From: an uncultured delta proteobacterium
GTDB taxonomy: Bacteria > Desulfobacterota > Binatia > UBA9968
DNA length: 64,000 nucleotides
NCBI GenBank assembly: GCA_963745835.1
Contig: CAVUZH010000024.1
Span: 320,001 to 384,000 of the forward strand
Reading direction: 5' to 3'
Shown here piece after piece: positions 4,010 through 27,720 of the stretch (position 1 is its first letter; each line of letters begins with the position of its first letter). Below the pieces are notes generated by a model. The model had not been told where the DNA came from. It did not search any database and worked only from the letters and a program-made list of their open reading frames with translations. Position numbers and translations under genes: made by a program.

Positions 4010-4021
4010 CGGAGTTAAGCG

Positions 4022-6867: not shown

Positions 6868-7635
6868 TCAGGATCTTCTTGCAACGAAAATACCCTAGCC
6901 GGACAATCGGTGGTTGGACGGAGAGTGGTTGCGTCGTGGACGCCTCGGATTAAAAAACCAATATCTAATAGCCAGCGGCCTACGTCCGAAGGAAAGTAAG
7001 CCCGTTCGCGATGTGATTCTGTGATCGGCGCCGAAGATCGCGGAGAGTTTAAAGTCACTTTGATCGCCAGCATTCTTTGACGCGGCTGCCAGCCTATTCT
7101 CTGCGTGACGCGGCAGCCCTTTGATGCGAGTTCTCGAAACTGCGTCAACGCGCCTCCGAGAGGTTCGCAGGGCGTGATCAGATCAAAGATAAAATGGCCG
7201 CCATGCCGCAGATTTCCGGCGACGCGCCGGAGCGCCATGACAAAATCATCAGGGTTCAGCAAATGGTTCAGGGTATCGAAATTCGCCGTGATCAAATCGA
7301 CCGGAAAGGGTAATTGCAAATAGCGAATATCCTGTTGCAAGAAAGAAACCTGTGATGCGCGGCAGTTTCGCATCGCAATCCGCAGCATTTCCGCTGATCG
7401 ATCCACGCCAAACACCGGTACACCCCAACACTGACTCAAGTAGCGGGCAAAGAGCCCAGTGCCACAGCCGATGTCAGCAGCGGAACGAAACGAAATGCGT
7501 GTATCGTTTCACTAGCGCTTCGAAAGCAGCGCGCGTGCCGATGAAGTTAGGAATTCCAAGAGCACGATCATAAGCCGGCGCGAGCCGGCTGTAAGCCCGC
7601 GCGAAACGTTGCGTGGCATTAATCGTGTCGATCAT
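6868..7635 (-). CDS. class I SAM-dependent methyltransferase (frameshifts near 7495 and 6890)
   Basis: DIGCGTG motif I upstream of the called ORF, plus GVDRSAEML, DLITANFDTLNHL and GGHFIFD. Confidence 0.8.
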
Positions 7636-7675
7636 ATCCGCGGCTGCCGTACAAAAAATCTGATCTCCTTAGCCG

Positions 7676-8124
7676 TTAGATATCGATTAACCTCCACCAC
7701 TGACGCAAAGAACTATCGTTAACCAGCCATGTAGTACCAGGCCTTCGATAGTTAAGACCGGCGACAATGTTTATAGGATCGTTATCAAAGAGCTTCTGGT
7801 CAAGCATTTCCTGGTGCCACTTTTGGAGCTCCATCTGCAGCTTTTGAACCAACATCCGTGCAGTTCGTTTGTCCATCCACCTTCCATAAGCATTTTCCAC
7901 TGCACGGAGAAACTCATCAAAAGAACGGCGAAATCTAACCTTCAGATTTAGGTCGCAACTCACGGAGCGCTTATCGGGAGCACCACAGAACCGCCGATGG
8001 CCATCCTTCGCGATCCAACCCTCTTTCGGTGGCCGTTGGGCCGGTGGTTTCGGCGGCGGTTTGGGCGTCGGTGCGGCCGGTCGCGGTTTGAAAACTTCTC
8101 CCAAGGCATTTTCAAAAAGTACAT
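7676..8124 (-). CDS. hypothetical protein with MY..ENALGE leader and Pro-rich linker
   Basis: GGAGG RBS and ATG at 8124; one extra base in the homopolymer gives MYFFENALGEVFKP in frame with ORF 7676-8104. Confidence 0.6.
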
Positions 8125-8144
8125 GGTTTCATCCTCCAGCAGGC

Positions 8145-9284
8145 TCAGCGTAACCGCCTGATTCGACGGATGTGCCTTCTCCTAAGTCTCGTCTGCATGC
8201 CAATGATTGCGCCCTCTTGATTGTCAGCGCCGGCTTCGGAAGAAGAAATGCGCAGCTGTCCCCGATTGTCTACCCAGAGATAATAGGTCGGTGCCATTTT
8301 CATCATAGAGAACCAGCATACCCGGACGCCGAGGAATCCCGGCGTTGCCTGTTCCACCCGGGTCGTGGCGGATGTCAACACGGCCGCGGTTTTGAAGTTC
8401 GCCGCCCAACTCAAGCAGGGAAGCGTTGCTCTCGAGCGGCGTTGCACTTGACCGATTACTACTTGATCGAGGTCGCCACTCAAGAAGGTCACCTTCTGGA
8501 AAGCGGCCAAGGTATGCGCATCCGCATAACGCTCAACGAGGTTGCCGATGGCGCTCGCCAGGTGCTCAATAAATGCCTCACGCTTTTCTTTTTGCTCCCG
8601 CGGCGATGGCGCGATCTCGATCTGGGTCGCATCGATGCCGTTCGGGTGCGAGCTCCCGTAGGTTCTTACGGTGTACCCTCCATCGACGCCCGGCGTTTCG
8701 GGGGTTTCTGGTTGCTTAGGCGACACGATGTAGCCGGCCGCCTCTGGCCCCAGTAGTCCACGCAGGCTGCGGCGCCGCCACAAAAGCTGCGGATCGATTT
8801 TCTGCAGACGCTCCACGGTCTTTCCATTATCCGTGCCCAGGTATAGATCAGCCGGATCAGTCTCTATCAACCCGGTCCCGTGGATATCGATGAGAAGACC
8901 CAGCCCGCCGTTTTCGGCCCGGATCTCGTTTACGAAGCTGCGTAACGTGCCGTGGTATTCGGCATAGAACGGCTCTGCCGCGGGAACCTCAAAGCCACAT
9001 TCCGCCGGCCGGTTTGAATCGATGTACTGCCGGTTGAATTCGGCGATCACAACGTAGGGCGCTTCTCCGTAGACTTCCAGCAGGCGCTGCGCAACGCCCT
9101 CGGTGATTTCGCGCGTGCGAAGATCGCGGCTGGTCTTGAATGGCGGGCAGTCGGAGTTCGATCCTGTTCGCTTGGGGACCTCCGGCGGCACCTTTTTGCC
9201 ATCGTGCGGGCAACTTATTATCACCGGCAATGTGCCGCGATGGCGACTGACGAGATTGGCCTCTTCGTAACGGATCGCCCACAT
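8145..9284 (-). CDS. N-formylglutamate amidohydrolase-family protein with an extra C-terminal domain
   Basis: ISCPHDG, IDSNR, LIDIHG and QIEI motifs; frameshifts in the C-terminal part. Confidence 0.75.
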   Translation of the reverse strand: MWAIRYEEANLVSRHRGTLPVIISCPHDGKKVPPEVPKRTGSNSDCPPFKTSRDLRTREITEGVAQRLLEVYGEAPYVVIAEFNRQYIDSNRPAECGFEVPAAEPFYAEYHGTLRSFVNEIRAENGGLGLLIDIHGTGLIETDPADLYLGTDNGKTVERLQKIDPQLLWRRRSLRGLLGPEAAGYIVSPKQPETPETPGVDGGYTVRTYGSSHPNGIDATQIEIAPSPREQKEKREAFIEHLASAIGNLVERYADAHTLAAFQKVTFLSGDLDQVVIGQVQRRSRATLPCLSWAANFKTAAVLTSATTRVEQATPGFLGVRVCWFSMMKMAPTYYLWVDNRGQLRISSSEAGADNQEGAIIGMQTRLRRRHIRRIRRLR

Positions 9285-9288
9285 CGGT

Positions 9289-10080
9289 TCACCTCGGAGA
9301 GCCCCTAAAAACTTGCTGGAATTGGATGACTCGCGGTTTGGAGCGGAAGGTTTGCTCCAAAACTCCAATCGCTTGCAACGCCTCATGCGTTTTCTTCTGG
9401 TTCGTGAGCCGGCGTACGCCTTGAAAACCAGCGATGGTCCATCTTCTCTCGATGGCATTTATCAGCGGCGTGATTCTGCCGTCGAAGTAAGCATCCGCAA
9501 CTAAAGCTGGCGTGATAGTCTCAAGGAATTTCCGCGCCACGGGAATGTACTCCTTATAAGGCTGCCATGCAGCCCGCAGCGGCCGAATACATTGCGCCGA
9601 CTGAATGTCTTCTGTGACGATTTGGGTCATCCCTTCGAGCAAACCCTCTTCCAGCAAAGCATAAACCGTAGCTCTCAACGAATTCGATTTACCCGGCGGA
9701 TGTGAAAACAGATGAACCGCCTCGTGCAAGGCTAAGCCTGCTTTCGTCTGGTTGAAGTTTCGCGCGGGAAACTCGCGCAGGAAGATCGTGGCATTCCGAC
9801 GGTCGATAAAACCCTGGGCATGCGGCGGTGGCCGGCGAAAGATAGCGCTGTACGTTGTCGCAAACTCGCCGTCGGTGACGATGCGCATCGGCCGGGCTGG
9901 GAGGCTTTTCTGATGCGCTGCAAGGTTGCGTTGCAAGTAGCCTTGCCACGGCGAGGGACCTCCCAGAATTGCGAAGATATGCGGCGCATCGGCCTCGGTG
10001 ATGTTTCTTTCTGCCGAGTTGAACGGCGGCTGGAAATTGCACGCCGATAGCGGTTCCGCCAGCGTGGTCATAATGTACAT
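9289..10080 (-). CDS. zincin metallopeptidase-like protein
   Basis: LHEAVH with a downstream LLEGMT (gluzincin-type third ligand); N-terminus MYIMTTLAE. Confidence 0.65.
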   Translation of the reverse strand: MYIMTTLAEPLSACNFQPPFNSAERNITEADAPHIFAILGGPSPWQGYLQRNLAAHQKSLPARPMRIVTDGEFATTYSAIFRRPPPHAQGFIDRRNATIFLREFPARNFNQTKAGLALHEAVHLFSHPPGKSNSLRATVYALLEEGLLEGMTQIVTEDIQSAQCIRPLRAAWQPYKEYIPVARKFLETITPALVADAYFDGRITPLINAIERRWTIAGFQGVRRLTNQKKTHEALQAIGVLEQTFRSKPRVIQFQQVFRGSPR

Positions 10081-10256
10081 GAGATCGCTCTATCCCGTCG
10101 GCCGTCAATATGCCTCTCCTGGCGCGGAACCGGACGCATTGACCGGCGAAGTGTCGTCGGTTCTTCGCCTGATACCGATATTGAAGAAACATTCACGCTG
10201 ACGTGGTGAATTCATAAAATTTGGCAAAACGATACTTCTTGTCGGTTGCTCGATGG

Positions 10257-10874
10257 CTAAATCGTCTGAGAACCACTCACGAAGAATTCAATCACCACCG
10301 ATCGGTTATTCGCCCTTGTCGCAACGGTCGAATTTTCCGTCAAATAGGTTTGAGGCGGCGCGGCGATTACCGCCATGACACGCGACCGTGCGCTTTTTCC
10401 GAGCAGTCGAAAAACGTTTTGGGCTCTGCCTCTGCGCAAAAACAAGTTCCGGCGTTCAACATCCACGCAATCGCTGTAGCCGACAATGCGGAAAAATAAT
10501 GACTTGTCGGTTTCAAATCGATTCAGGTGATCTCTTAAAAGCTGTTCATTTCTCGCGGCCAGCTTGACGTGCCGCCAATCCACACCGAAATCACGGATTA
10601 CCAAATATCGGCACGAGACCACGACGTTTGGCAGCACCTGTCCCGGTTGTACCAAAACGACGTCCGGCGTCAGATGTCCCGCCGCAGTGCGTGAGATGGC
10701 AATCTCTTGCGCCTCATATGAAAAACAAGTGCTGCTTTTAATCTTGCCAAGTTCAGGACACCAGTGTTTTGGCACCAGCGGGTTTGTCGGCATCCGGGCG
10801 GGCGGTGTTCCTGGGACTACGGGCTGCGGCAAAGGGCCGCGAGGCTGTCCGAGACCGTTTAAATGGATATACAT
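10257..10874 (-). CDS. OmpA-like peptidoglycan-binding domain protein with MYIHLNGLGQ leader
   Basis: IVGYSD...N..LRRGRA..V...RANNRSV; no signal peptide. Confidence 0.75.
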   Translation of the reverse strand: MYIHLNGLGQPRGPLPQPVVPGTPPARMPTNPLVPKHWCPELGKIKSSTCFSYEAQEIAISRTAAGHLTPDVVLVQPGQVLPNVVVSCRYLVIRDFGVDWRHVKLAARNEQLLRDHLNRFETDKSLFFRIVGYSDCVDVERRNLFLRRGRAQNVFRLLGKSARSRVMAVIAAPPQTYLTENSTVATRANNRSVVIEFFVSGSQTI

Positions 10875-10997
10875 GAATTCGCTTCTCCTTTATCGCATCC
10901 CTTGTAACCTCGAAGTCGTTTGGCTCGGCTCCGACTCCGTTTGTTCGGAGTTAATTTTGTCTCACTAGCCAATTTCCAGTTCAAAGATGGGCCTCGC

Positions 10998-12236
10998 TTA
11001 GAACGGGAAATCGAGCGAGCGCTCGGCGGCAGCGTAGCTGCGGCGACGGCTCTCGTGCCCTGCTGCCCCTCCAGCGTGGTGATCGAGGAAACGATGTTCG
11101 TTTTGTCGGCCGTTGAAAATGTTACTGCGTCTTTTCCGAACAGCCGCGCGCTGTCGCTGCCAAGCCCGTCGGCTGCATGAACCGGGTTGCGGACATACAG
11201 GTGCCGTACCTCGTGAGCCATTGCGCGACCCAGCGCGATTCCACCAGTTCCTTTTGCTGGGCCGTCCACATAGCCTTGTCCTTGGGAATGTTGTTCTTCT
11301 TGGTGCTGCGGCCGTCGCGATAATCCCGCCGGGATGTATTCCTTGTTAAGGTAATCAATCAGTTCGTTCACCCTGACCGCGCTCGCCATCAGCGGCGCTG
11401 CGACCTGCGTTCCGCCGGCCACTGGCGTCACAAACTTGTTCATCGACGCGATTCCGTACCTCTCAGGATTCAGGCGCGTCGGTCGGGGGCGGGAATTCTG
11501 AACGGTTGCCCAAGGCGTCGATGGCCCGGTTGAGGTTGTTTACTTGCTGCCTGAGCGCCCAATAAACATGAATGTTCGGAGGAGTATTGGGATCGGTTAC
11601 GCTAACAACTGCATCGGAAAAATTGAACGCGTCGGGAAAGCGGCGGGGCTCGGCAAAGATCACAGTCATCGGCGCGTTGCCGTTGACGAACGCGAATTGG
11701 CCGGCTATCTCTTCGCCGGCGCGGGTCCGCGTCTCCGGAGGCAAGCTTCTGAAAGCTCATTGTCGACGACGAAAATAGTGCGACTGTTGACCGCGCCGCG
11801 TGCAAGCTGAACCGCCAGCCAGGGTGAACGATATTTGTGCAGATGTCTCGAATTCTTGTGAGAAGCTTTTGTTGTTTGTCCTTGGGCTGCTGCTTGAAAC
11901 GGCCCAGAACGTCGGGATGGCGGGCGAAAAAGATTAGTTGACCGATTTTACGTTCGGTGGAGCTGTTATGCAGCGCAGGCCTGACGTCGGCCTTCAGGAT
12001 CCGGCTCCACTCGGCCGTCTCTTTGGTGTTCGGTTTCGGTGGTCGACCCTTTAAATTCGGATGGCGGGCCCAAAAGACGAGGTTCGTGAGGCTGGCGGCG
12101 AGCTTGGCTATAGTGATGGGCCCGCTTTGAGGGGAGACGTCAGCTAATGGCGTGTACCTTCGGAACTCATTGATGGGAGCATCGTAAGAGTATGACGTCG
12201 GGATTCGCCCAAACCTTCGTGCGTTCGGATATACAT
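10998..12236 (-). CDS. HExxH metallopeptidase-like protein with MYIRTHEGLGE leader and two LxFxARHP repeats (several frameshifts)
   Basis: GGAGG RBS and ATG at 12236; manual translation gives LTNLVFWARHP and GQLIFFARHP; AHEVRH.....HAADGL near the C-terminus. Confidence 0.6.
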
Positions 12237-12251: not shown

Positions 12252-13598
12252 TTACGGGTTGTTTGCCCTGACCAGCTGGTCCACGTCTTTGACGAAACTG
12301 TTTAGGAACAACTTCGTCTTCGATTCAGGTTCACCTTTCCGCAACACCAAGACCGCCAGCGTATAACGACGGTTACCGGATGCGGACTCGAGCAGCGTCG
12401 CCACTGATGCATGACGTCCGAGGTGAGTCCGCACTTGGTAGCGCGAACCTTGATGTCTGGCAATGGGAAAAGGATCGAGGGGGAAGATGCAGCCTTGCTT
12501 GAGCAATGCTTCCATCGCCAGGGAGGCCGACTCGTTGACGAGTCGGCGTTGCGCCAACAGCGTGAACAACGTAACCACCGAAAGCGCTGTCAGACTCGAA
12601 CTCCGTGTCGTCCGTCGGATCCTGATACCACAATATTCGTTCTCTCTCTCCTTCGGGCGTCTTGTAGCGTGTTCTGTAGTTGCATTTGGAGTTGGTCGTC
12701 GCCAGGATCTTCGCTTGCTGGTAGGTGTTCCTCACCCATAAAGCCTCGGACCCGCGAGTGGCGCAGACCCGACTGCCACAACACTCATGCGATGTACTGG
12801 AAGCCGAGACGCATGATGAGCTGATTGGCTTGCCCCACGCTGCTATTGGAGAAGGCTGCGATCACCATCTGTTTCAGATGTAAATCGAGGGACCGGCTGG
12901 CCTTCGCTTTAACGGTCGGCCCGCTCGAGTCGAACTCCACGAGCCAGTCCAGGTCAGGTGGGCAGATTAGCTGGGACCAAACTTCGTCGGCCTTCTTCTT
13001 CAGCTCGGCGGCGGTCTTGAGGCCTCCGCTACGACCCATCTCGTTGAGGTCGAAAAGAAGCTGGTGCGCAGCATACAGAATCGCGATTTTCACAGTGCTC
13101 CCGCCGGTGATGGGGAACGTCGAGCCCCAATCGGCATACCCAGGCTTGCAGATTTTGGCGCCGGTCAAGTCAACCACCGCCACTCTCAGCCTGTCACCGG
13201 GGCTCGCATCACGTTTGTGTTTACTCTGGTCGGCCAGCATGATCGCGTATTTGGTAAGGACCAAACTCTGTAGCTTCGCATGGAGCACGGTGTCGAATTC
13301 GTGAAAACCGTCGCTCGCCCTGAAGAAGCCGGGGTCCATCGCCGCGCGCATCATGGTTCTTGGAGCCGCGACGCTGGTGCAACACTTTGCCGTCGGCGCA
13401 GGCGCGGGGCACGTGCTGGTGCGGGACACATTTGAGCGCCGAAAGGCACGCGAGATCCGGCGCGGCTTGACCTAACACATACTCTCCGGTTCCATCGATC
13501 GACTGAGGGTCGCGATAGACCTTGGAAGGCCGCAAAAGAATGGGAGTTTCGCTATGAAGACCTTGCGCTCTGGATGGTTCGCGATCGTAGATATACAT
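12252..13598 (-). CDS. serine beta-lactamase/PBP-like hydrolase with MYIY...VLGQ leader (several frameshifts)
   Basis: STVK (SxxK), ANQLIMRLG helix, and a KCG (KTG-like) motif in a shifted frame near 12430. Confidence 0.65.
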
Positions 13599-13687: not shown

Positions 13688-14542
13688 TCATTGAAGTTTT
13701 GCTTTGCACGCGGCAACGCTCGCAGGATCGGCAGCCGCAGCTCCGCCACAGGCGAAGACTTCGTAGCAGTGGGCACTATTTCTTTTCCGCTCTTTTTGGT
13801 CGTGCTGAAACCAGGAGCAAGTCAGGCCAAAACATAAGTGAAACATCTCATGAAGGATCGTGCCCTCCTGCCAGAGGGTTTTCAGTTGCCAGAAGGGTGG
13901 ACACAGCCATACCTCGTTCTTGCACAAAAAGGCCATGGCCACATTGTCAACAACGATGGTTTCGGTAGGGTGGCAAGATCGAGATGGAGGCGAAGGTACG
14001 GGTACGAGATCAGGCCCTGGCACGCCGGGGCGCTCAACTATTTGAAAATTGCCCAGGCCATCCAGACTGCGAACGGCGCCGCCATTGCTACAGCCGCCTA
14101 CGCTCTTCATGGTTTGACAGCGATCGACGTTGACACATCGATAGATCGTGTCACTCGTTTCCAACTCGTTTGCGACAGCGCGGAAACGGCCGGCTACAAG
14201 GGCGCCCGCAGCTATTGTGCGGCCGGGGCGGCCAGGCACTTCCCACAGATCGCTCGGAGCTTGACCGAAAACCTGGCCGAACACCGTGACCACGACCGGA
14301 CTCAGGTGTCTGGTCTGAAGCAGGGCCGCAGCTTTTTTGGCAAGATTGATTGCGCCGAGCACCCTATCGCACAGAGCTTTTCGCTGCTTGCACGAGCTGG
14401 AAGGGGAAGGACAGTCGGGGCTGCAAACGAATTTCAAGGGTGGACAAGCCTGCGTTCTGGCTTCGCTAACCCCCCCGATCACGCCCGGCCCATCATAAAC
14501 AAGGCCGCCATGCGGCGCGTCGCCGATCATCTGGTAAGCCAT
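13688..14542 (-). CDS. M35-like (deuterolysin/lysine-specific) metalloendopeptidase, Cys-rich
   Basis: VWLCPPFW...GTILHEMFH...NSAHCY. Confidence 0.7.
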   Translation of the reverse strand: MAYQMIGDAPHGGLVYDGPGVIGGVSEARTQACPPLKFVCSPDCPSPSSSCKQRKALCDRVLGAINLAKKAAALLQTRHLSPVVVTVFGQVFGQAPSDLWEVPGRPGRTIAAGALVAGRFRAVANELETSDTIYRCVNVDRCQTMKSVGGCSNGGAVRSLDGLGNFQIVERPGVPGPDLVPVPSPPSRSCHPTETIVVDNVAMAFLCKNEVWLCPPFWQLKTLWQEGTILHEMFHLCFGLTCSWFQHDQKERKRNSAHCYEVFACGGAAAADPASVAACKAKLQ

Positions 14543-14613: not shown

Positions 14614-15531
14614 TCACTTACTCCGCACAGCAGGCCGGCCTTTGGGCCGGACAGCGTTCTCGGGCCGGAAGCTGGTTCTCACGACCCGAATAGCTCCAGT
14701 GGCGGCAGCACCGAGTCCGGCCGTTCGCGGCTGTCCCGCAACGGCCACCGGACCGCAACGGTTTGTCACGGCGCATCTTGCTTCGAAGCCTGGGTCTAGC
14801 GGACTGTCGTTCGTCGCCGCGACGAATTGTGCCAGGCATTCCGCTACGCCAATGGTTGAGCCTCTCGCATCAACAGTGCAGTGATACAAGTGTGACGCCT
14901 CATGAATAATTGTCTGTGCCTGAAACTCCGCGTGGATCTTCGGATCGACGGTGGCTATCCAAAAGTTTCTGCAAAGACGGATGATGGTGGGCTCGGTGCG
15001 ACGGCAGGTAGGATCTATGAGAACGTACGCCCAGTCGCCACTAGCGCACTGGGGACCGTGACAAACATACAGGATCGCATTACTCGCAATCAGATTTCTA
15101 ACTCGCGTCAATCTGCGGATTACTTCCGCTACCGACCTATTCACGAGCGTACCCGCAGTCCAAACCCCGATATCATCAACGCATACGCCCAACCGATTCC
15201 TCAGCCACTCCAAGATAACGTCGCCTAGCAGAGGCCACGCCGGCGTTTGCCCGGCGCAGACGGCGTTCCTCGCATTCACCAGTTCGCCGATCGTATTGTC
15301 CAGCATCTCAATAGCTCTGGCGACAGCGGCGGCAATGACTTTACCTGGATCGCTGATACCAAAAGGGCTGCGTTTGGCGCAGGTTCCGAACAGCTTCTTT
15401 GTGGTGAACGGGGTAACGGTCTCGAGTGGGGGAATGCGAACCTTGTTGTCGCACGTCCGCGGTGTAAGCGGCGGCTCACCGTAACGCGCACCGGTCAGGG
15501 AACGTGGATATACCATTGATTCATGCCTCAC
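14614..15531 (-). CDS. M35-like metalloendopeptidase, Cys-rich
   Basis: IRLCRNFW...QTIIHEASH; paralogous layout to 13688-14542. Confidence 0.7.
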   Translation of the reverse strand: MRHESMVYPRSLTGARYGEPPLTPRTCDNKVRIPPLETVTPFTTKKLFGTCAKRSPFGISDPGKVIAAAVARAIEMLDNTIGELVNARNAVCAGQTPAWPLLGDVILEWLRNRLGVCVDDIGVWTAGTLVNRSVAEVIRRLTRVRNLIASNAILYVCHGPQCASGDWAYVLIDPTCRRTEPTIIRLCRNFWIATVDPKIHAEFQAQTIIHEASHLYHCTVDARGSTIGVAECLAQFVAATNDSPLDPGFEARCAVTNRCGPVAVAGQPRTAGLGAAATGAIRVVRTSFRPENAVRPKGRPAVRSK

Positions 15532-17139: not shown

Positions 17140-17208
17140 CGGAGTTTCGCCGGGGTTTGGAAGCAATTTCCCGTCTTACTCGAACATGCGTGCGTGCCCT
17201 GGCCATAA

Positions 17209-18698: not shown

Positions 18699-19236
18699 CT
18701 ACTTGGCCACATGAATGTGATCGCGATGGGCGTGCAGCAATGCATCGCTGATGAAGATCCATGGCCCCTCGCTCCGCGTCCATGGACCGAAGAGCTGGAT
18801 CGGATAACCGTACGGCTGCGCCCAGCGCCCATGGAGTTGGAGCGCTTTGTAAAGGCGCCAGCCGAGATTTCTGCGCCGCTCTTCGCGTTCGATGCCGTGC
18901 CTCGCCTCAAGATCGTCAGCTTGAGCACTGCGTCGCCATCGCATCGGTCCAACGTTTTTTCCAGATACTGAGCCCGAACCCGCCCACGGCGTAGATGTCG
19001 GCCGCGCGGCCAACCTTGTGATGACCGACGATGCCCGGCTTAAAGAAAATGCCCACGGGACGAGCGGTGCTGTAGCCCGCCTCGCGCGAAAACCGCTCCA
19101 GTGCTCGGCACAGTTCAGCCGCAAGCTCGGGCGTAACGAGAGCGTTTGTCGGAGGCGAATCGACGCGATAGCCGATTCCCGAAGGGACCGCCACTCGTTG
19201 GAAGCTCGATCTTGAAACAATGTCATACAACATCAA
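18699..19236 (-). CDS. M15/LAS-type Zn peptidase (putative peptidoglycan peptidase; frameshift near 18925)
   Basis: GHHKVGRAADI (H-x6-D) and HRDHIHV (H-x-H). Confidence 0.65.
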
Positions 19237-19696
19237 CCGTAAACAGGGTTGTACCAGTAGCGGCCCATCAGTCTGCCGCCCACCTGCTTCACGTCCGCAG
19301 CGCTGTCGTTTAAACGACGCACGACGAACTCGAGCGTGGCACTCTCGTCTAGTCGAAGCGAGACTTCGAAGCTGCCGTTACCCCATGGATTAACGATGTG
19401 CTCGAAGCTTGACATAGGGATACAAAGGTCTCTTGTTCACCATAATCAGCCACTGCAATCCTGGCGTCGCGACTTGCGAGGGATCTTTGGCGTGCGCATC
19501 GGTAAACTGCGCAAAGAAGCGGAGCACGCCGCAATATTGCGGCGGCAGCTCGAAACGCGCCAGGACAACTTGCTGACCCACCCGAGGAGCATCCTCTATT
19601 TTTGACTCATCGAAATGCTGCGAGTCTAGCGGTATGCCGCAGATCGGGCAGTCGGCCGCTCGAACGACCGTCGACTGTTTACTTGCGCGCTCTCAT
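19233..19696 (-). CDS. small beta-rich protein, putative minor capsid/vertex protein (frameshifts)
   Basis: Joined frames read CPICGIPLDSQHFDES...VLARFELPPQYCGVLRFFAQ...VGGRLMGRYWY; ATGA-coupled to the upstream gene. Confidence 0.45.
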
Positions 19697-20458
19697 CGTC
19701 GTCTCCCGAGACGCTGTACTCTGCCGGTTGGCGTGCCGCTTTCCCCAAGGACCTTATAGCCGTGCAGAGCGACGTGCAGCTCGCCTTGGAAATCCGAGAC
19801 CTCGCGCACCTCCAGGCGTATGGTTGACTGCGGCGCAAAAACAATCGGCTTGGCGAAATATCGAAAGGGCCGGTCGCCATTGGAGATGCCCAAGCCCGCC
19901 GTGCTGAGAATCGGTTCGCTCTGAAATTCGCGGCCAGAGCCTTCGTCAAACAGCGAGTACAAGAACTGGATGTTTTCCGGCGGGGCCGCAACTACCTGAA
20001 AGAGATTTTCCAGGACGCTCGGATCCAACGGAATATTGCCGCCGTTCTGCAGCGCGAGTTCCACAATATCTGGATTAAGTTTGAAACCGTTTTTGAGCAC
20101 CGCTTCCGCTCCGGTCTCGCGCTTGAGTAGCCGGGACGTCTCGGGCAGCTTGGCATCGAGGCCGTCGAGCAGCGGACCGATCACATCGTGCAAGCTGAAT
20201 CGTTGGCCGGCGTCGTGACAAGGATGATCGGCGCCGAAAGCTTGGGACCGAAAGTCAGCGCGGCGACCTTCGGCACCAGTCCGTAACCGATGGAAACGGC
20301 AACGAAGGTCGCTTCGATACTTACGGTGACGGTACGATTAAGAACGTTGTCGCGCCTGCCGGTCAGATCGTAGCGGAAGGCGTATTCGAACGGCACCGTG
20401 CGCCGCGACGTCAAGGCTCGGTCTTCGGCAAATCCCGACGTGACTGAGCCGGCGTCAT
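19693..20458 (-). CDS. putative single-jelly-roll capsid-like protein, family 2, one domain (frameshifts)
   Basis: VPFEY...IGYGL...FLYSLFDEGSGREFQSEP...GLGISNGDRPF...LHGYKVLG; paralog of both halves of 20455-21810. Confidence 0.55.
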
Positions 20459-21810
20459 CGGCGCATCCCCTGGGAGTTGATTCCCAGCACTTTGAAGCCT
20501 TGGAAGACGAAGTAAAGCGTGCCGCGGCCAAAGTGTTCTTGAACAGTAACGCGGATCGCGGCGCGCGGTCTGAAAATCATGGCCCTCGCGAGCTTTTTAA
20601 ACGGCCGGTCGCCGTTGGCGATGCCAAGCCCGGCTATATTATGGATCGGCTGGTTCTGCAGATCGCGCCCAGCGCCGGCGTCATAGATCGATAACGAAAC
20701 GAGACGTCTTCGGGCCGATTGAGGTTCTCGAAAATTTTGCCGGCGACGCTCGCGCGCACCTTATCGCTCAAGCCGCCTCCGCTGTCGAAAGCGATGCGCA
20801 GAAAACTCGGACGAATTCGGATCCCGCCGAGCAAAGCGTCTTGCGGCAAGGCGCCGAGCGGGAGTCGCGAGAGCTTGAACGTTTTTCCGCACCGCCCTCG
20901 CTCGGCGGACTGACAATATTGCCAGGCAAGGTAACCGGGATCTCAGCGGCTCCCGTTTCTAAGCCATAACCGATTGCAGTTGTGACAAATCCGCCTTCAG
21001 CGTTGATCGGAACTTCGGTTTCAATCAGGTTTTCGGCGCGGCCGCTGAGTTCCAGGCGCGCCACGTAATCAAACGGCACGACCCGTTCCGACGGCTGGCC
21101 GATGGTCTCGATGCGGCACATGGGGGAACCGTGCAAGCGCCGCAGCAAGGGCTCCGGACAGTTGGATGCGCCGAGCAGTTTGTAGCCGTAGAGAACGATA
21201 AACAGGGTTCCTTTGACACCTTCGGAACGTTCGACGATATGCAGCCGAACGCTCGAGCGCGGCATGAAGGTCAATGGCTGTGCAAGCTGACGGAAAGGCC
21301 GCTCGCCATTGCTTTTTCCGAAGGAAGCGAGATTGTGGTGGGCTCGTCTTGCAGTTCGCGCCCGCTGGCGCTGTCGACGAGGCTGAAGAGAAAAGAAATA
21401 TCTTCAGGAGGTTTTAGCCGTTCGAGGATCCCGGCGTCGAACTGAGGCGCTAACTGTTGATCGAATGCGACCGGGCGCAATCGCGGACTCAGCCGGAAAC
21501 CAGTAATCAAAGCGTCAACCGGAATTTTCCCGAGCTTGATCTCGTTCGCCGGGAGAGAGCTCTCGAGGGAGACAGCCAGCGATCGGACGCGCTCCTCTTG
21601 CAACCCGTAGCCGATGCCGGTGGCGACAAAGACGCCGTCGCTGCTGATGTTGATCACATCCTGAACGATGTTGCCTGGAATGCCTTTGAGCTGAAAACTT
21701 GCCGCATAGTCGTACGGGATCACGGCCCCCGGAACTGCCTGCGGCGCTGTCCCGCCGCGCCGGACCGGCGGAAACCTGCGGGTGTATGGACGTGTTTGAG
21801 TCGATATCAT
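20455..21810 (-). CDS. putative jelly-roll capsid-like protein, family 2, two tandem domains (frameshifts)
   Basis: Two copies of [IV]P[YF]DY...IGYGL...PED[IV]SF...GR[ED]LQ..P...NG[ED]RPF...G[YF]K[LV]LG. Confidence 0.55.
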
Positions 21811-21941: not shown

Positions 21942-22964
21942 TTACTGCACGTCTCTGGTCATGTAGCCGTCCAACACGACCCAGATGTAGAGCGGGCCGT
22001 AGATCCTCTGCAGCTCTTTCAACACATCGGCATCCGGCACTTCGATTTCGACCCGGAAGTTCTGCTGTTTGTCGATGAATACCGGCTCAGCGAAACGGAA
22101 CGTGGCGGTCGGCGAGGGTTCGCCATGAGTTGTAAACGCCGCCGTCTCCGAATACGGGCCGGCGCCCGCGGGGAAAAACCACGTGGGCATCTGAATCATG
22201 ATCTTTTCGCCGACATAAAGCGTCGTAACCGTGTTGTAGATGAACTTGCCGATGAGCGTTCCGGCGCCGTTGTTCGGGTGAATCTGTGCCTTTGGCGGCC
22301 GTTTGCTGTCGGGGCGCACCTTCTTGATGATCGCTTCGATATCGGAAACATGCAGCCAGATCACGCCTTGCATATTGACGATATCTTCGCCGCCGATGGT
22401 TTTGTCCGGCTCCGAATGGAAGAACGTAAACGACTCTTCGTCCGCGAACAGCGGCGCATACCCGTCTCGGTCGGCACGCGCTTCAGTCAACAGCTCCATG
22501 AGCGGGCCCAAGCCGATCTTGAAGTTGGCGAGAATCGGCTCGGCGTTACTGGGCAGAGTCGTATCGATGAGCGCTGGAATCGTCGAGTCGATGATTTTGT
22601 TGTTGTCATCGGCAATCACGATGGCCGGATTGCCGGCGTCCCGCGCCACGAAGTAAAAAACGTTCTCGTCTAGATCTTCGACCGGATACTCTTTGTCTTC
22701 CACCGTGATGTCGTCGGGGAATTCCGGCGGCAAATCGCTGATCACCACCCGCATCGCTCGCGCCTCGAACGTATTGTAGTGCGGCAAAAGCGAGGCCGAC
22801 TGCAGGTTGGTTTCCAATTTGGTCTTGTTCTGCACATTGACGAAGAATCGCAGGACTCCCGTACTTTCTGCGTCTCGCAGTTGTTTCTCCGGTTCCACGG
22901 TGAGCGAGTCATAGATGGGCAGATGGACTTTTTCTCTTACGCCTTGTACGACAGCCATGGTCAT
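21942..22964 (-). CDS. putative major capsid-like protein (single jelly roll, family 1) with an acidic insertion
   Basis: PIYDS..LRFF..KTKLETNL..LP..F, then YVGEK, FPAGAG, QNFRVEI and C-terminal LDGYMTRDVQ. This resembles, from memory rather than a search, major capsid proteins of tailless viruses; strong AGGAGG RBS. Confidence 0.55.
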   Translation of the reverse strand: MTMAVVQGVREKVHLPIYDSLTVEPEKQLRDAESTGVLRFFVNVQNKTKLETNLQSASLLPHYNTFEARAMRVVISDLPPEFPDDITVEDKEYPVEDLDENVFYFVARDAGNPAIVIADDNNKIIDSTIPALIDTTLPSNAEPILANFKIGLGPLMELLTEARADRDGYAPLFADEESFTFFHSEPDKTIGGEDIVNMQGVIWLHVSDIEAIIKKVRPDSKRPPKAQIHPNNGAGTLIGKFIYNTVTTLYVGEKIMIQMPTWFFPAGAGPYSETAAFTTHGEPSPTATFRFAEPVFIDKQQNFRVEIEVPDADVLKELQRIYGPLYIWVVLDGYMTRDVQ

Positions 22965-23019: not shown

Positions 23020-23719
23020 TCACCACAGGGGCTTGAACGTCTCCGGTATCGAAGTTGCGGTTCCCGGTTGCGCCGTGAACCCGTTGCAGCTGGCGTTCAC
23101 GGTCGCGGGTTGAACGTAGCCCTCGAGCGGCTCCGCCTCGCCGAATCCGCTGACGTTGGTCGGAAGCGGGCAACCGGCATTGAACGCCGGCTCCATCTCG
23201 CGCACGTATCCATCCATCTCGGGCTCGCCGTAGATCTCCGGCGATTCACCGTAGTACCCGTACGGTTCAGTCTCACCGTAGGGCATCTCTTCGGAGAGAT
23301 AGGGCTCCTCTCCGTAGTAGCCGACCGGCTCGTACTGGCCGTACATCTCCGGTTCCCCGTACGGCTCCGGCGCCTGCGCATAGTAGCCATACGGATCAAT
23401 CTCTCCGTAGGGCATCTCTTCGGACAGATAAGGTTCTTCGGCGTAATAACCTATCGGCTCGTATTGGCCGTAAACATCCGGCTCGCCCCAGCCGTACATT
23501 TCAGGCGGCTGGGCGTAATATCCGTAAGAATCGACCTGGCCATAGCCGTAGCCCTGAGAGAGATACGGATCCTCGGCGTAATAGCCATAATCCTGCGGCA
23601 GCTCGCCGTAATAGCCCATGTCGGGCTGCTGAGCGTAGTGAAATCTCATTGTTCTTCCTCCATAGTTTTCGCTCGGGATTAACAATCATGACTTCGTCAA
23701 ATCCAAGGTTACGTTTCAT
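23020..23719 (-). CDS. Tyr/Gly/Glu-rich repeat protein (frameshift near 23675)
   Basis: Start MKRNLGFDEVMIVNP joins ORF 23020-23685; three tandem repeats of about 43 aa. Confidence 0.7.
23205..23575 (-). repeat. three intragenic tandem repeats (PYLSEEMPYGE.DPYGYY...YGEPEMYGQYEP.GYY.EE)
   Basis: Visible in both protein and DNA (CCGTAGGGCATCTCTTCGGA occurs twice). Confidence 0.85.
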
Positions 23720-23753: not shown

Positions 23754-24134
23754 TCAGCCTTCGATTCCTCGCGCGTGATCCGGTAACGTCCGCCGATGAT
23801 GTAGAGCTGGGTTCCTTGCGGGATTGCACGCCAGTCGCGCCGGCGTCTCCATAAAATGGATGTAAGTCCTGGATTGCTTCGGCGTTTGTTTGTCCGAGCT
23901 GTAAATCAGACCACGCAGATAGCCCAGATGCACCAGCACCTCTGGAATCACTCTCCGGCAAGGCGCGCGAACCACCTGCGCAGGTGCAAAGCAATGGAAA
24001 CAGGCGAAATTTCTTCTTGAGCTCGCTTGAATGCAGCCTGGAGGCCGCGCTCGCACCGACCGCGTGCCTGGCGAGATGCGCGAGCGATGACATAACTCAC
24101 TGAGGTCGTCCTTATCTCTGAGGTGCGTGTTCAC
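23754..24134 (-). CDS. conserved-looking hypothetical protein, putative virion-type protein (frameshifts)
   Basis: LG.LRGLIYSSDK...YIHFME.P..LA.....QLYIIGGRY.I...GIEG. Confidence 0.5.
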   Translation of the reverse strand: MNTHLRDKDDLSELCHRSRISPGTRSVRARPPGCIQASSRRNFACFHCFAPAQVVRAPCRRVIPEVLVHLGYLRGLIYSSDKQTPKQSRTYIHFMETPARLACNPARNPALHHRRTLPDHARGIEG

Positions 24135-24144
24135 CGGATATCCT

Positions 24145-24877
24145 CTAACGTCGTCGCCGCACTCGGACCGGCCTTCTGACGGACATCGCCCACTTCGGGT
24201 ACAACAGGCCGGCGGCGGAATCATGCGTCGGGTTGCGCGTGCGCAGCGGCGCCCGGAACGAGGCCTCCGGGACCGCGCCATGCGAGGCAGCGCATGTAAA
24301 GTCGCCGCGGCTGAACTCCAGTGTAAGGATGGGGACGTGGGATCCACCCTGGCGGCATGTACGGCCGCATCGGCGGCGCCATCATTGGCATGGGAACCTC
24401 GGCGAATTCATCGCCAGCATCCGGTGCATAGACCTGTTGTGCCGCCTGGGCTACAGGCTGCAACTGTTGGATCGCTCCTGGCAGCGCTTGTTGGTACGCC
24501 TGTACCGCCGGCGCAAGTTGCTGCATGACGCCCGGCATAGCGCTTTGAAAAGCCTGCACCGCGGGCGTGAATTGTCTGACGACTCCGGGAAGTGCCCGCT
24601 GCGCCGCTTGAGCTATCGGGGCAAAGCGTCGAAGCGCGCCCGCTGCTCCTCGAATGATCCCCGGCAATGCTCTCGCCGCATGGGGAAGGACTTTCGCGGC
24701 AATAGCCGGCAACACCTTGGCCGCGAGCGGCGCCAAAAACGGCAACCCAACGGGATTGCCAAAACCGTCGTAGACGACTTCACCCATCGGCTCTGGATAC
24801 TCTCCGTATTGAGAACCATAGATTTGAGCATCCGGAACTTCATGCAGGTATCCCGTTAACGTGTCTTGGACGAGCAT
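24145..24877 (-). CDS. Ala/Gln/Pro-rich amphipathic protein with YGE leader and Arg-rich tail
   Basis: IYGSQYGEYPEPMGEVVYDGFG; repeated (A)LPG..QQL.PAVQA helices; the shifted frame ends RRPVRVRRRR-stop at 24145. Confidence 0.65.
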
Positions 24878-25418
24878 TTCATTCCCTCCTTTTCAATTTC
24901 ACAAACCCGTTTCCAAAGCGCCGGCGGCGCCCATCCTATCCGTCGTTCACAGTCGCGTCCACGGCGATCCATCGGCCGCGAACATTCACCTCTGGATAAA
25001 TGTGCGAGTATGCATGCGGCTTGTTCGGGCGAAAACCGGCCAACACCAGCCTCACCGGATGACCGGTAGACATGAGCATCGCGCCCAAAAGAATGGTCAT
25101 ATCGTCGCAATCGCCCGCCCGAAGCTCGAGCATGCGACGCGCTGAGTGCAGCAACTCCACACGGAAGATATCCCTCGTGTAGCGAATATTGCGGCGCACC
25201 CAATAGAACAAAGCGCAGACCTCGCCAAACCGGTTTTTTGGACGGATGCCGTACTCGCGAAAGATTTGAATCGCCTTTTGTCGAACGTAAAAATCTTTGG
25301 CTCCCGCGAGAATCATCCGCGCAATAATTTGCGCCGTCACCAGGGTGCCCCCGGTTCCATTGGGAACGCGATGAATGCGAATGCGAGGCGTCACGAAACG
25401 GCTGCATAATTGTATCAT
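24856..25418 (-). CDS. transglutaminase-like cysteine enzyme
   Basis: GDCDD (Cys), HIYPEV (His) and WIAVDAT (Asp) triad; IRYTRD; probable frameshift near the C-terminus. Confidence 0.85.
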
Positions 25419-25670
25419 TCACACCACACCGAGAATCCGTTGAATGGGAACGATCAGTTGTTGCTTGATTCCTTCGACCTCAACAACGGCAAAAGCGCCC
25501 TGCGAACTGCCGCTGTCTGAAATATCAAGAACCTTCCCTTGCAGAAGATCATCTCCGTAAACTTCGAGAAGCAGCATTTGAACATCTGGAACGTAAACAT
25601 CGCGGATTTTGAAATGGACCCAGCGATGCTTTAGTCGAGAAGTCTCGCTCTTGAGTTGTTCCGCAGCCAC
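25419..25670 (-). CDS. small beta-rich hypothetical protein, first gene of the operon
   Basis: ORF abuts the transglutaminase start; GTG at 25670 lies just downstream of the sigma54 promoter. Confidence 0.55.
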   Translation of the reverse strand: MAAEQLKSETSRLKHRWVHFKIRDVYVPDVQMLLLEVYGDDLLQGKVLDISDSGSSQGAFAVVEVEGIKQQLIVPIQRILGVV

Positions 25671-25682
25671 ACTGCGCAGTTC

Positions 25683-25699
25683 AGCAAGCGACGTGCCGG
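25683..25699 (-). promoter_or_regulatory. sigma54 (-24/-12) promoter
   Basis: Minus strand reads CCGGCACGTCGCTTGCT, matching TGGCACG-N4-TTGCW with exact GG-N10-GC spacing. Confidence 0.75.
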
Positions 25700-26144
25700 T
25701 TCGGGGCGTGCGTAATAACGAGACGAACCCTAGCAATTTTCGATAGCTGGGCTCTGCGCAGGTTTACGTCGTTGGAAGCAGCTAAGACGATGCAGAAAAA
25801 ATATTCCGGTTCGTATCATGATTTTCCGGAAGACTCTTTCTGCAGGCGGGGAAAAAACTCGAGCGGCGCATTGCTGGCGTGCTTTGCGTAAATTCTGTAA
25901 CCGATACTCCTGCAACCCCGGAGCTGTGATAGTCAAACCCCGTGTTATTCGCTTTTTTCAAATGGGAATAACATTGCAATGCGCCTTCATTCGACCGTTG
26001 TAGTGCGAGCATGCGTCGGGGAAGCTGTGAAAAAATCCCCCCTGATCTCCCTTTACAAAGGCAGAACGAAAACCGCGCGATCGATCATAGGTTAGGATGC
26101 AGGAATCCGAATTGCCGCGGCACCAACATCTAAACGGCGCCAGT

Positions 26145-27720
26145 CTAGCGGTCAACGGTAGAGTTCAGGTGGTACTTGCGCAGTTTGTTATAAACGCTGC
26201 GCGACGTGATACCAAGAAGGCGTGCGGTTTGGGACTGGTTGCCGCGTGTCTTGCGGAGCGCTGCCTCAAGGAGAAGCTTTTCACAAGAAGCAAGCGACCC
26301 ATTGAGCCGCCAGTTGTTCGCATCCAGCAACCTGACAACGGACGAAGTCACCTCGCGCTGTGGCGACGACGCCAGCGGACGATCATCAACGGATCGCGGC
26401 GGCCCGTGAGATTCTTCTCGCAATGCAGGCTGCCAGCGCGATAGTTGTTGCAAAATCTCCGGCGGCAGATCAGCCAGAGTGAGAGGGGCAATATCGTCCT
26501 TTTTAACCAGCGCCTGCCTGACGATATTCTCCAGTTGCCTCACGTTGCCGGGCAGTCCGGCTTCTGCGAGCGCTTCAATGAACTCGTCTTCGACAGACAG
26601 CGGCAGCGCCGGTGCGAGGGCGCGATACTTCTGAAAAAAATAATCAACCAGCGGTCTAATGTCCCCCGGTCTTTCCCGCAATGACGGAGTATGGATCGAC
26701 AGTACGTTGAGCCGGTAAAAAAGATCTTCGCGAAAGTTCTTTTCTTTCACCATCTGCTCGAGAGCCCGGTTGGTTGCGGCAATGACTCTTACATCGACGG
26801 ACGTTTCGTCGTCCTCGCCAACGCCCAAGACGGTCTTTTCTTGCAGCATGCGCAACAGCTTGGACTGTAGCCCATCCTCCAGTTCGCCGATTTCGTCAAG
26901 AAAGAGAATTCCGCCATGCGCGGAACGAACCAGGCCTTTTCGATCGCGATTCGCACCCGTGAATGCGCCGCGTATGTGGCCGAATAGTTCACTTTCAGCT
27001 AAGCCCGCGCTGATGGCGCCGCAATTGACTGCGACGAAAGGGCCGCTGCGGCGTTTCGGGTCTAAGGCATGAATAGCATGGGCCAACAGTTCCTTGCCCG
27101 TACCAGTCTCACCCGTAAGCAGGATGGGGAGGTCGCTAAGAACACTGACTCGGAGAACTGTGCGAAACACCGCCAGCATTGATTGGCTTTCCCCAACAAT
27201 CCCCGCCTGGATCATATTCTCTTTGATGCATCGCTCATCCTCCTCCCGTCGTGCTTCGGCCTGAAAGAGCTGAACGAGCAGCTGGAAAAGTTCGGACTCA
27301 AAATCTGATCTCGAGCTATCCAACAAATTGGATGCGCCGGCTACAAGGGGCAAGCAGCGAGTCCGTATCGGCCAATTGTGAGCTCCGTCTGCATAAGCCA
27401 ATATGCCAAGTCCGGAGCCTTTAAGAGCATGCAGAGCGTCCAGCAGAGATGCGTTTGGGCCAAGCTCGTCGTCCAATGCGACCAGAAGAACATTGGCGCC
27501 AGACGTGGCGCGCGCTCCTCCGACTTCGTTGATATCACTAAGCCACCTAGGGGTAGCGCCGCACTGCGCGATGATTTGCTCAAGGCGCGAGCGGTTAAGG
27601 TCCCCACGATCAAGCAGCATAATCGTAGGGGGTGAACTATGCGTGGGTATTAGGTTGGAATTTGACCGATAGTCTGCGGGAGAACTTGACAGAGCTTTCG
27701 GCTTGGTTGGCTGACTCATC
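26145..27720 (-). CDS. sigma54-dependent enhancer-binding protein (NtrC/Fis family), degenerate N-terminal domain
   Basis: GETGTGKE Walker A, GAFTGA loop, LFLDEIGE, FREDLFYRLNV and a C-terminal Fis HTH; start uncertain. Confidence 0.92.

Follow-up and report, generated by a model that had tools for sequence, protein, structure and literature searches.

The described systems that come closest to the locus reported here are, by functional analogy, the encapsulin operons and, by structural analogy, the capsid module of the double-jelly-roll viruses. The locus lies in a stretch of 64,000 nucleotides from an uncultured delta proteobacterium (Desulfobacterota; Binatia; UBA9968; contig CAVUZH010000024.1, positions 320,001 to 384,000), hereafter called the window, and comprises about 21 co-oriented genes on its minus strand, running from 25670 to about 6789 behind a gene for a sigma-54 activator. 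Taken together, the genes look like a capsid morphogenesis module that lacks a genome: one conserved gene, g10, is predicted to encode a double-jelly-roll protein, and many genes downstream of the conserved part start with a common short N-terminal tag. A genome-less, closed jelly-roll shell that loads the tagged enzymes is a possible reading of these genes, which we put forward tentatively.

As encapsulins are described in abstracts and in a 2022 review of exapted mobile elements (PMC8987985), the likeness lies in a chromosomal operon without packaging genes, in which a putative shell gene adjoins enzymes with a common short terminal peptide, here a putative targeting one, and in a shell fold otherwise known from virus capsids. 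The review has no jelly-roll case, the word "jelly" occurring 0 times in its text, and the encapsulin fold it describes is HK97, with one shell gene, in contrast to the predicted jelly roll and the three or four shell candidates here (PMC8987985). The present operon differs further in its N-terminal tag, conserved disordered proteins, transglutaminase-fold enzyme, LAS-motif peptidase, and sigma-54 control, and its shell is a proposed one. The capsid module of double-jelly-roll viruses (PRD1, PM2, PBCV-1, mavirus, and vaccinia D13; Varidnaviria) is approached by the two predicted jelly rolls of g10, whose best Foldseek matches are these capsids, by one-domain jelly-roll candidates, by weak penton-like matches of g09, and by a nearby wall peptidase motif. 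However, the genes here are chromosomal and under a cellular activator; they include no FtsK/HerA-type ATPase, membrane proteins, or replication genes and have no sequence or profile similarity to the viral module, and the template modeling (TM) scores of the structural matches are low. Because the HK97 fold, a packaging ATPase, and sequence homology to either are missing, the operon is a member of neither the encapsulins nor the double-jelly-roll viruses.

Double jelly rolls also occur in cellular proteins. In the part consulted, Krupovic, Makarova and Koonin (2022, PMC8812541) count four families with this fold, namely viral capsid proteins, DUF2961, PNGase F, and PHM, the cellular ones being stand-alone enzymes; PHM is among the top Foldseek matches of g10. 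Unlike these enzymes, g10 has neither a Pfam match nor invariant His/Met copper ligands, and its 13-gene operon also encodes a one-domain paralogue, together with tagged enzymes. Tailocins, extracellular contractile injection systems (eCIS), and gene transfer agents are likewise virus-type structural modules in cellular genomes, host-regulated and possibly serving protein delivery or release, but they derive from the tails or heads of tailed phages with clear homology, whereas none was detected here and there are no tail genes. In phage T4, internal proteins carry capsid targeting sequences that are cut by the prohead protease; the T4 shell has the HK97 fold and packages DNA. By analogy, a short N-terminal tag on unrelated proteins would load the shell proposed here, and a co-encoded protease could cut the tag.

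Gene models were derived from homologs, with the low-GC copy L015, from a metagenome-assembled genome (MAG) of the Calditrichaceae, as reference because its open reading frames (ORFs) are unambiguous. The activator, the promoter-like element, and the genes as far as g14 are as follows:

26145-27794, minus strand: sigma-54 enhancer-binding activator (NtrC-like AAA+ domain and Fis-type helix-turn-helix), intact; from Pfam.
25683-25698, minus strand: -24/-12 (sigma-54) promoter-like element, with one mismatch to the consensus.
25419-25670, minus strand: small first gene, about 80 amino acids, start uncertain, of no known family; homologs in 25 loci, no Pfam match.
24859-25418, minus strand: transglutaminase-fold (papain-like) Cys enzyme, frame break near 24939-24948; from Pfam and homologs.
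24221-24877, minus strand: low-complexity Ala/Pro/Gln-rich protein with a tag-like motif in its N-terminus; from its sequence.
23768-24100, minus strand: g07, small basic Cys-containing protein, about 114 amino acids, frame break near 23820; from tblastn, in two frames.
23020-23685, minus strand: g08, acidic Tyr/Gly/Pro-rich repeat protein with a conserved C-terminus, intact; from homologs.
21942-22964, minus strand: g09, 340 amino acids, very conserved, beta-sandwich core with an inserted domain, intact; from homologs and AlphaFold2 (AF2).
20455-21810, minus strand: g10, predicted two-domain (double-jelly-roll) protein, about 460 amino acids, three frame breaks; from tblastn and AF2 of a homolog.
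19693-20458, minus strand: g11, one-domain g10 paralogue, about 255 amino acids, one frame break near 20210-20245, ATGA overlap with g10; from hhalign.
19233-19696, minus strand: g12, about 165 amino acids, conserved, frame break near 19410, ATGA overlap with g11; from homologs.
18699-19236, minus strand: g13, LAS-motif (M15-like) zinc peptidase candidate, about 180 amino acids, frame break near 18910-18935; from its motif.
17209-18598, minus strand: g14, about 450-530 amino acids, conserved, frame break near 17400-17420; from homologs.

The structural argument starts from g10. The AF2 model of the intact L015 protein (41 aligned sequences; pLDDT 85.9, pTM 0.84) has two beta-sandwich domains that both contain short helical insertions, and an arm at the N-terminus that is basic and disordered. 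Foldseek returned 38 matches in the PDB at E ≤ 1e-3, headed by PBCV-1 Vp54 (E 2.8e-7, probability 0.99) and continuing with PHM (~1e-5), vaccinia D13, the STIV triple jelly roll, PR772/PRD1 P3, and the mavirus capsid protein. By its model, g10 looks like a further double-jelly-roll family. The 41 g10 sequences share invariant Gly, Pro, Phe, Arg, Asp, and Glu residues and have no invariant His, Met, or Cys; a PHM-type copper enzyme was rejected as the identity of g10, there being no invariant His/Met ligands in these sequences and no Pfam match. The smaller g11 is homologous to each of the two g10 domains (hhalign E 1.9e-51). A complex of g10 with g11 was weakly supported, with a prediction score of 0.39 versus 0.17 for the best of 3 controls (contact agreement of at least 68% and partner pLDDT of at least 63 in the runs); of 80 solved complexes 58 reach the mark applied, as do 2 of 110 mismatched pairs, but with scores of 0.60 or less only 7 of the solved complexes do so, and both mismatches, and the score adds little because paralogues may align side by side from likeness alone.

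The neighboring g09 is about 60% identical across phyla. In its AF2 model (36 aligned sequences, pLDDT 73.4) the inserted domain, at residues ~85-225, is confident and the surrounding sandwich less so. Its Foldseek matches were weak and comprised the mavirus penton, the adenovirus penton base, and capsid proteins of nodavirus, HHIV-2/HCIV-1, and CRESS viruses; the penton matches in the PDB had E values of 7e-3 to 1e-2 and TM-scores of 0.12-0.16, and at E ≤ 1e-3 there was one match in BFVD and none in the PDB. For both g10 and g09 the nearest unnamed clusters in the ESM Atlas were largely viral (scores 0.94-0.97), and the nearest Pfam-named clusters were PM2 P2 or PRD1 P3 capsid domains (0.75-0.77), which we treat as leads only. 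Sequence-profile searches of the PDB gave nothing for g10 and only chance-level matches for g09 (E ≥ 0.27). A profile of the jelly-roll domain, run against 1.84 billion representatives, found 418 clusters at E ≤ 1e-3, the best 150 of which were all of g10/g11-like length, with no bridge to a known family among them.

An earlier note, made from the letters of the window alone, had read four beta-rich genes here (g09 to g12) as two single-jelly-roll capsid families of tailless icosahedral viruses. That pairing did not hold: the models give one double-jelly-roll protein, its one-domain paralogue g11, and a g09 with weak penton- or capsid-like matches. All four genes do have conserved homologs and the models of g10 and g09 are beta-sandwiches, but g12 could not be linked to the others by hhalign, its comparisons with g09 and with g11 not being significant. 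The check by AlphaFold and Foldseek that the note had proposed favors a jelly roll for g10 (pLDDT 85.9, capsid matches to E 2.8e-7) and gives weaker indications of one for g09, with low confidence and no PDB match at E ≤ 1e-3. Likewise, the suspected capsid resemblance was found in so far as the best g10 matches are capsids of tailless icosahedral viruses, but a capsid-type fold was not set above a PHM-type fold. For the descent from a viral lineage that the note proposed, sequence relatives were sought in IMG/VR, phage GenBank, and PHROGs and not found.

Those searches were part of a wider one for viral hallmarks. Among the core proteins, neither an ATPase family, such as an FtsK/HerA-type packaging ATPase (Pfam), nor terminase, portal, integrase, or replication families (Pfam, PHROGs) were found, and there was no conserved Walker-A/P-loop, pattern matches occurring in 9 of 31 loci at scattered, non-conserved places. 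No core protein matched a known capsid family (Pfam P2/P3 and others; PHROGs) or the HK97/encapsulin families of Pfam, and the models are beta-sandwiches. With PHROGs, 10 core proteins yielded only an unknown-function match for a DUF3467 protein and g09 at 0.015. Profiles of g10, g09, g11, and g13 found 0 relatives in IMG/VR by a pattern-based scan that detects closer relatives only, and tblastn gave no match for g10 and g09 in 50,697 phage records or for g09 in 72,556 plasmids. The flanks held no recurring integrase, terminase, portal, or mobile-element family among the 25 listed of 79 families in 82 ORFs; as to marks of an integrated provirus, the window has no tRNA gene and its flanks are housekeeping genes, att repeats not having been searched for. 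The lack of packaging, integration, and replication genes that had been noticed in the window extends to the core proteins and the listed flanking families. There are no transmembrane segments in the L015 core proteins, on which ground a virus with an internal membrane was rejected.

The same genes recur well beyond the window. With one genome scanned per species, 51 loci were obtained, all from MAGs and none from an isolate, in which gene presence was scored against the L015 gene set; by their titles, 28 are from Acidobacteriota, 8 from Verrucomicrobiota, 7 from Pseudomonadota, 3 from Nitrospirota, 2 from Myxococcota, and 1 each from Calditrichota, KSB1, and Planctomycetota. The transglutaminase gene and g07 to g14 are each present in 36-48 of the 51 loci with their order kept, absences being mostly at contig ends: the transglutaminase gene in 40, g07 in 44, g08 in 46, g09, g10, and g11 in 48 each, g12 in 43, g13 in 39, and g14 in 36. 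The flanking genes are ordinary housekeeping genes that differ between loci. A conserved core followed by variable putative cargo, which the earlier note had expected of a neighborhood comparison, was borne out across the 51 loci. The g09 search reached 2545 proteins at E ≤ 1e-3; among the 120 matches listed, identities were 56-98%, none had a Pfam domain, and they were named "hypothetical protein" at most. No paper describing the operon was found in the literature searched, although supplementary files might name the families.

The distribution of the cluster is patchy. Neither 40 close relatives nor 400 genomes sampled from the window's phylum yielded g09, and the g09 tree mixes phyla with strong support: the Calditrichota copy falls inside the Acidobacteriota (100/99), and a Nitrospira copy groups with one from Terriglobia (97/87). 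The operon is horizontally spread and dependent on a sigma-54 activator; MAG binning errors could contribute to the mixing of phyla in the tree. Soil MAGs of Acidobacteriota and Verrucomicrobiota carry the cluster most often. One Verrucomicrobiae MAG (L016:10001-10987) has a lone intact g09 homolog of 328 amino acids, with the other cluster genes absent within 10 kb and with aldehyde dehydrogenase, cation antiporter, APRT, and phosphofructokinase genes as neighbors. Five loci (L034, L036, L038, L039, and L046) form a second g09 clade (100/100), in which g09 has about 415 amino acids (10001 to ~11250), g09 and g10 are separated by about 1.1 kb more, and the g11 sequence diverges further; this clade may be a subtype with an extra gene.

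Control of the operon was read from its upstream end. The activator matches Sigma54_activat (E 4e-64), AAA_lid_14, and HTH_8, and a homolog heads the cluster in 28 of the 51 loci, contig ends truncating many of the remainder. Of 39 related loci, 25 have a GG-N10-GC element on the coding strand within 450 nt 5' of the transglutaminase gene, versus 1/39 on the opposite strand and 57/1470 (3.9%) in control stretches of the same loci. Across the window, -24/-12 patterns are not above chance (7 observed versus 11.6 expected), so the weight of the element at 25683-25698 comes from its conserved position and not from a window-wide count. Since 25/39 loci carry the element at a frequency far from that of both controls, sigma-54 control, as judged from the adjacent enhancer-binding protein together with the GG-N10-GC element, is a conserved property of the operon. 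The overall layout suggested for the window accordingly stood up, from the run of co-oriented minus-strand genes to the NtrC-like activator and the promoter, as did the ATGA coupling of genes, with overlaps at 20455-20458 and 19693-19696. Two more -24/-12-like matches on the minus strand, at 6312-6327 and 9524-9539, have 2 mismatches each and precede the genes that start at 6146 and 9458; they may be meaningless because the window-wide count is not above chance.

Apart from the activator, the only core proteins with Pfam matches are the transglutaminase-fold enzyme and, in L015, a DUF3467 protein. Transglut_core is matched at E 1.3e-12 in the window (24936-25418) and at E 5e-13 in L015, and identity to copies from other phyla reaches 83.5%; with Cys, His, and Asp in the expected order in its translation as read by eye, the enzyme is placed in the transglutaminase-like (papain-fold) superfamily, in keeping with its first annotation. 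The DUF3467 protein (L015:5613-5897, Calditrichaceae; E 5e-13) is the small first gene of that copy, and its unknown-function PHROG match has E 5.5e-6; judged by sequence, the small first gene of the window and 25 other loci either differs from it or is very divergent. The low-complexity protein at 24221-24877 probably has a frame-broken C-terminus near 24190-24230; short-read contigs show an indel cluster at 24189-24229. Other loci encode one to three low-complexity Pro/Gly/Ala-rich proteins with a conserved N-terminus and often a poly-Arg C-terminus. The Tyr/Gly-rich low-complexity protein recognized earlier at 23020-23685 is g08, which is filled with Tyr...GE.P-like repeats; in L015 it has 14.9% Y, 15.3% G, and 13.8% P, with 40 D+E versus 16 K+R. 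No match was obtained for g07 in Pfam or PHROG searches, or for g14 in Pfam, PHROG, or PDB sequences. In g13, H-x6-D and H-x-H motifs are present, and H76, D83, H176, and H178 are invariant in 37 sequences. We take the LAS/M15 zinc motif to be H-x(3-6)-D and H-x-H; the M15-type peptidase that had been called here is therefore a candidate with invariant zinc-motif residues but without a Pfam match at E ≤ 0.1 or a PDB sequence match at E ≤ 10.

Downstream of g14 the genes vary between loci, and many start with the tag M-(x)-Y-[LIFVM], often followed 10-35 residues later by (L)GE(P). Counting stop-to-stop ORFs of at least 110 amino acids whose ATG is preceded by a ribosome-binding-site-like motif, we found the tag in 47 of 284 operon-strand ORFs downstream of g14, many of the 284 being spurious because the genomes are GC-rich; the same count gave none among 257 ORFs of the opposite strand and none among 362 upstream of the activator. 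Across the genome to which the window belongs, 1.1% of comparable starts show the strict pattern; two other tag-rich places in it, C3 (194 kb) and C18 (516 kb), were set aside as chance, e.g., repeated internal Met sites of paralogues. The window has eight tagged starts, at 16647, 15516, 14542, 13598, 12236, 10874, 10080, and 8124. A motif shared by several N-termini of this second block had been noticed in the earlier note, and it proved to be downstream-specific (47/284 versus 0/619); the enzymes of the block had also been said to lack signal peptides, and a signal-peptide-like hydrophobic core was looked for in the tag and not found. The same short motif is also found in the low-complexity core proteins, a few residues from their start, and exactly that stretch opens one of the cargo candidates. 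Among 58 tagged proteins, Pfam recognized OmpA (10, the commonest), Aspzincin_M35 (7), Extensin-like_C (4), Trypsin_2 (4), PG_binding_1 (2), and a few others; by these domain matches, they are mostly proteases and peptidoglycan-binding or -cutting proteins. The features of the block in the window are as follows:

16681-17166, minus strand: untagged protein, coiled coil by eye from its sequence; homologs in 3 loci only.
15676-16647, minus strand: tagged (MAYV...) protein with a Cys-rich stretch and then a weak OmpA-like region; family in 11 loci.
14614-15516, minus strand: tagged (MVY...YGEP) aspzincin M35-like metalloprotease, intact; Aspzincin_M35 E 3.4e-8, 62.7% identical to the L015 copy.
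13688-14542, minus strand: tagged (MAYQ...) second M35-like protein with an HExxH motif; from Pfam and the motif.
12785-13598, minus strand: tagged (MYIY...) protein of unknown family, frame-broken; homologs in 2 loci.
10862-12236, minus strand: tagged (MYIR...GLGE) gene whose frame changes after about 30 codons, from the ORF map; that 10862-11539 is part of the gene starting at 12236 is a guess.
10257-10874, minus strand: tagged (MYIH...) protein, 64% identical to an L043 ORF.
9289-10080, minus strand: tagged (MYIM...) protein with an HExxH-like motif, 56% identical to an L026 ORF.
8145-9458, minus strand: untagged FGase-family (N-formylglutamate amidohydrolase-like) protein; Pfam FGase E 9e-14.
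7679-8124, minus strand: tagged (MYF...) small protein, frame break in a T5 run just past the tag; an L028 ORF shares ...GEVFKPRP after the tag.
6789-7602, minus strand: SAM-dependent methyltransferase, untagged, a recurrent accessory, frame break near 7498; from tblastn.

The methyltransferase has a homolog in 21 of the 51 loci, the L015 copy matching Methyltransf_25 at E 5e-17. In the tagged OmpA-like family (15676-16647; L014:16237, L023:15994, and L042:16275), a Cys-rich stretch of the type G-C-G-x-x-C-x-C directly follows the tag and, from its sequence, could be a metal site or a disulfide knot. Just past the methyltransferase gene is a 269-amino acid ORF (5337-6146, minus strand) with neither a Pfam match nor a tag. 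Near the cluster, on the plus strand and with no seen link to it, are a CBM_21 starch-binding-module protein (4019-4663, E 1.6e-19) and an HTH_3 protein (3307-3858).

The copy in the window contains at least 11 frame breaks in about 19 kb relative to intact homologs: in the transglutaminase gene (~24945), g07 (~23820), g10 (~21337, 20910, and 20691), g11 (~20230), g12 (~19410), g13 (~18920), g14 (~17410), the methyltransferase gene (~7498), and the tagged gene at 8124. The gene that starts at 12236 is interrupted as well. Intact frames are found in the activator gene, g08, g09, and the M35 gene (14614-15516). We judge it probable that the breaks are errors of the assembly consensus in a strain-heterogeneous stretch. 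A recently acquired island now being lost, its breaks real, is a reading of this copy only, compatible with any reading of the operon, and the less probable one; in its favor, the flanking housekeeping genes are whole and cover their Pfam models in full, the cluster, with a long-ORF cover of 0.38 against a genome median of 0.71, is at the 2.5th percentile, and g09 was not found in the 40 close relatives and 400 same-phylum genomes mentioned above. Set against real decay is the kind of break. All are indels. The orthologous alignment pieces are free of in-frame stops, and on either side of every break the proteins remain 50-84% identical to distant copies; one break lies in the T5 run, and the many small genes also contribute to the low ORF cover. 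In short-read contigs from related strains, which are 90-99% identical (four records, three runs, two studies), the gaps equal the window's breaks in number over the covered part of g10, with none over g09, and contigs of three runs have an extra G behind 24944, at the transglutaminase break. The bin has an estimated contamination of 9.3%, which, together with the absence of g09 from 400 same-phylum genomes, may bear on the assignment of the contig to this bin.

From these observations, we infer the following course for the tentatively proposed shell. The activator would turn on the entire minus-strand operon, and g10, g11, and g09 would assemble in the cytoplasm into a closed, capsid-like, genome-less shell. 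The disordered proteins, i.e., the acidic Tyr/Gly-rich g08 and the Pro/Gly-rich proteins with poly-Arg tails, would serve as an internal scaffold, and the N-terminal tag M-(x)-Y-hydrophobic...(L)GE(P) would bring variable enzymes into the shell, among them peptidoglycan-binding OmpA-like proteins, M35 and trypsin-like proteases, LAS-type peptidases, and others. The transglutaminase-fold Cys enzyme would mature the assembly by tag removal or cross-linking, and the LAS-motif peptidase may open the wall of the producer for particle release. In its most far-reaching form, somewhat less likely still, the reading would make this the first known cellular jelly-roll capsid-type compartment or released enzyme particle with its own tag, scaffold, and maturation protease, corresponding on the side of the tailless viruses to the encapsulins on that of the HK97 phages; alternatively, the operon would be a surviving cellular relative of the ancestors of double-jelly-roll capsids.

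Several points weigh against a shell. The copy in the window, frame-broken while its flanks are whole, may not work. OmpA-like and PG_binding domains normally act outside the cytoplasm, which fits export as well as cargo. The Foldseek matches of g10 have TM-scores of 0.12-0.27 throughout, with about 0.17 for the best-matching capsid proteins, and root-mean-square deviations of ~17-30 Å; the likeness is therefore local (3Di) and not a rigid superposition. The cellular enzyme PHM scores about equal to the capsid proteins, and these model-based figures cannot rank one above the other. The jelly-roll part of g09 is modeled at low confidence, with the PDB yielding no match at E ≤ 1e-3, and hhalign links neither g09 nor g12 significantly to g10/g11. 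A viral origin is unsupported by sequence, since PHROGs, IMG/VR, and phage GenBank yielded no relatives. Finally, jelly rolls are common in non-capsid proteins, e.g., CBMs, PNGase F, and DUF2961, according to the consulted part of PMC8812541.

The alternative that best survives for the operon as a whole is a new export or sorting pathway, which we consider unlikely. The tag would be a secretion or processing signal, the transglutaminase-fold Cys protease a leader peptidase, and the jelly rolls lectin-like or chaperone/usher-like proteins, with the wall-directed enzymes (OmpA-like, PG_binding, LAS-type, and proteases) taken to the envelope or to other cells. Such a pathway would suit tagged proteins that have peptidoglycan-acting or -binding domains yet no Sec-type hydrophobic leaders, and a papain-fold enzyme does head the operon; a tag with a dedicated Cys protease is also reminiscent of double-glycine leader systems. 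However, the core contains no conserved membrane protein, ATPase, or channel-like gene, all of its proteins look soluble and cytoplasmic, and three to four very conserved paralogous beta-sandwich proteins, of which g10 is without an invariant catalytic-type residue, suit structural subunits better.

An open cross-linked layer or matrix (a coat, cyst-like, or adhesive), in which the transglutaminase would cross-link Tyr/Gly/Pro-rich proteins on a jelly-roll lattice while tagged hydrolases remodel the wall during a sigma-54-controlled differentiation, seems to us improbable. It would explain why a transglutaminase-fold enzyme co-occurs with several low-complexity Tyr/Gly/Pro-rich proteins and why wall-directed enzymes are present, and sigma-54 control is common in developmental programs. 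But no core protein has a signal peptide or membrane anchor, a tag on unrelated enzymes needs a receptor, the hosts come from eight phyla without a common developmental biology, and the patchy, horizontally mixed distribution suits an accessory module. Very improbable is a decayed or cryptic provirus of an unknown tailless jelly-roll virus whose packaging and replication genes were lost or lie elsewhere: capsid-like fold matches of g10 and g09, viral ESM Atlas neighbors, the lysis-type peptidase motif of g13, the phyla mixed in the g09 tree, and the frame-broken window copy speak for it, but the gene set and order recur, strongly conserved (transglutaminase, 83.5%) and with a cellular-type activator and promoter, in most loci of eight phyla, there is no conserved ATPase motif, no integrase, terminase, or portal recurs among the 25 listed of the 79 flanking families, the window is without a tRNA gene, and the four core profiles scanned in IMG/VR and the searches of phage and plasmid records found no match.

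If the jelly-roll proteins do form a shell, they would constitute a second, independent class of virus-like containers in prokaryotes; to our knowledge, all known prokaryotic virus-like containers (encapsulins) use the HK97 fold. A shell would also bear on the origin of double-jelly-roll capsids, the cellular families having been known so far, in the consulted part of PMC8812541, only as enzymes, and a short N-terminal loading tag combined with a multi-enzyme cargo system would be of practical use. That all 51 loci are from MAGs, with no isolate among them, may explain how the cluster has gone unnoticed. Even without a shell, this conserved sigma-54 operon of 13 genes, most of them encoding proteins that have no known domain, makes up with its specific tag a system not described so far, and it would offer testable cell biology for poorly known phyla.

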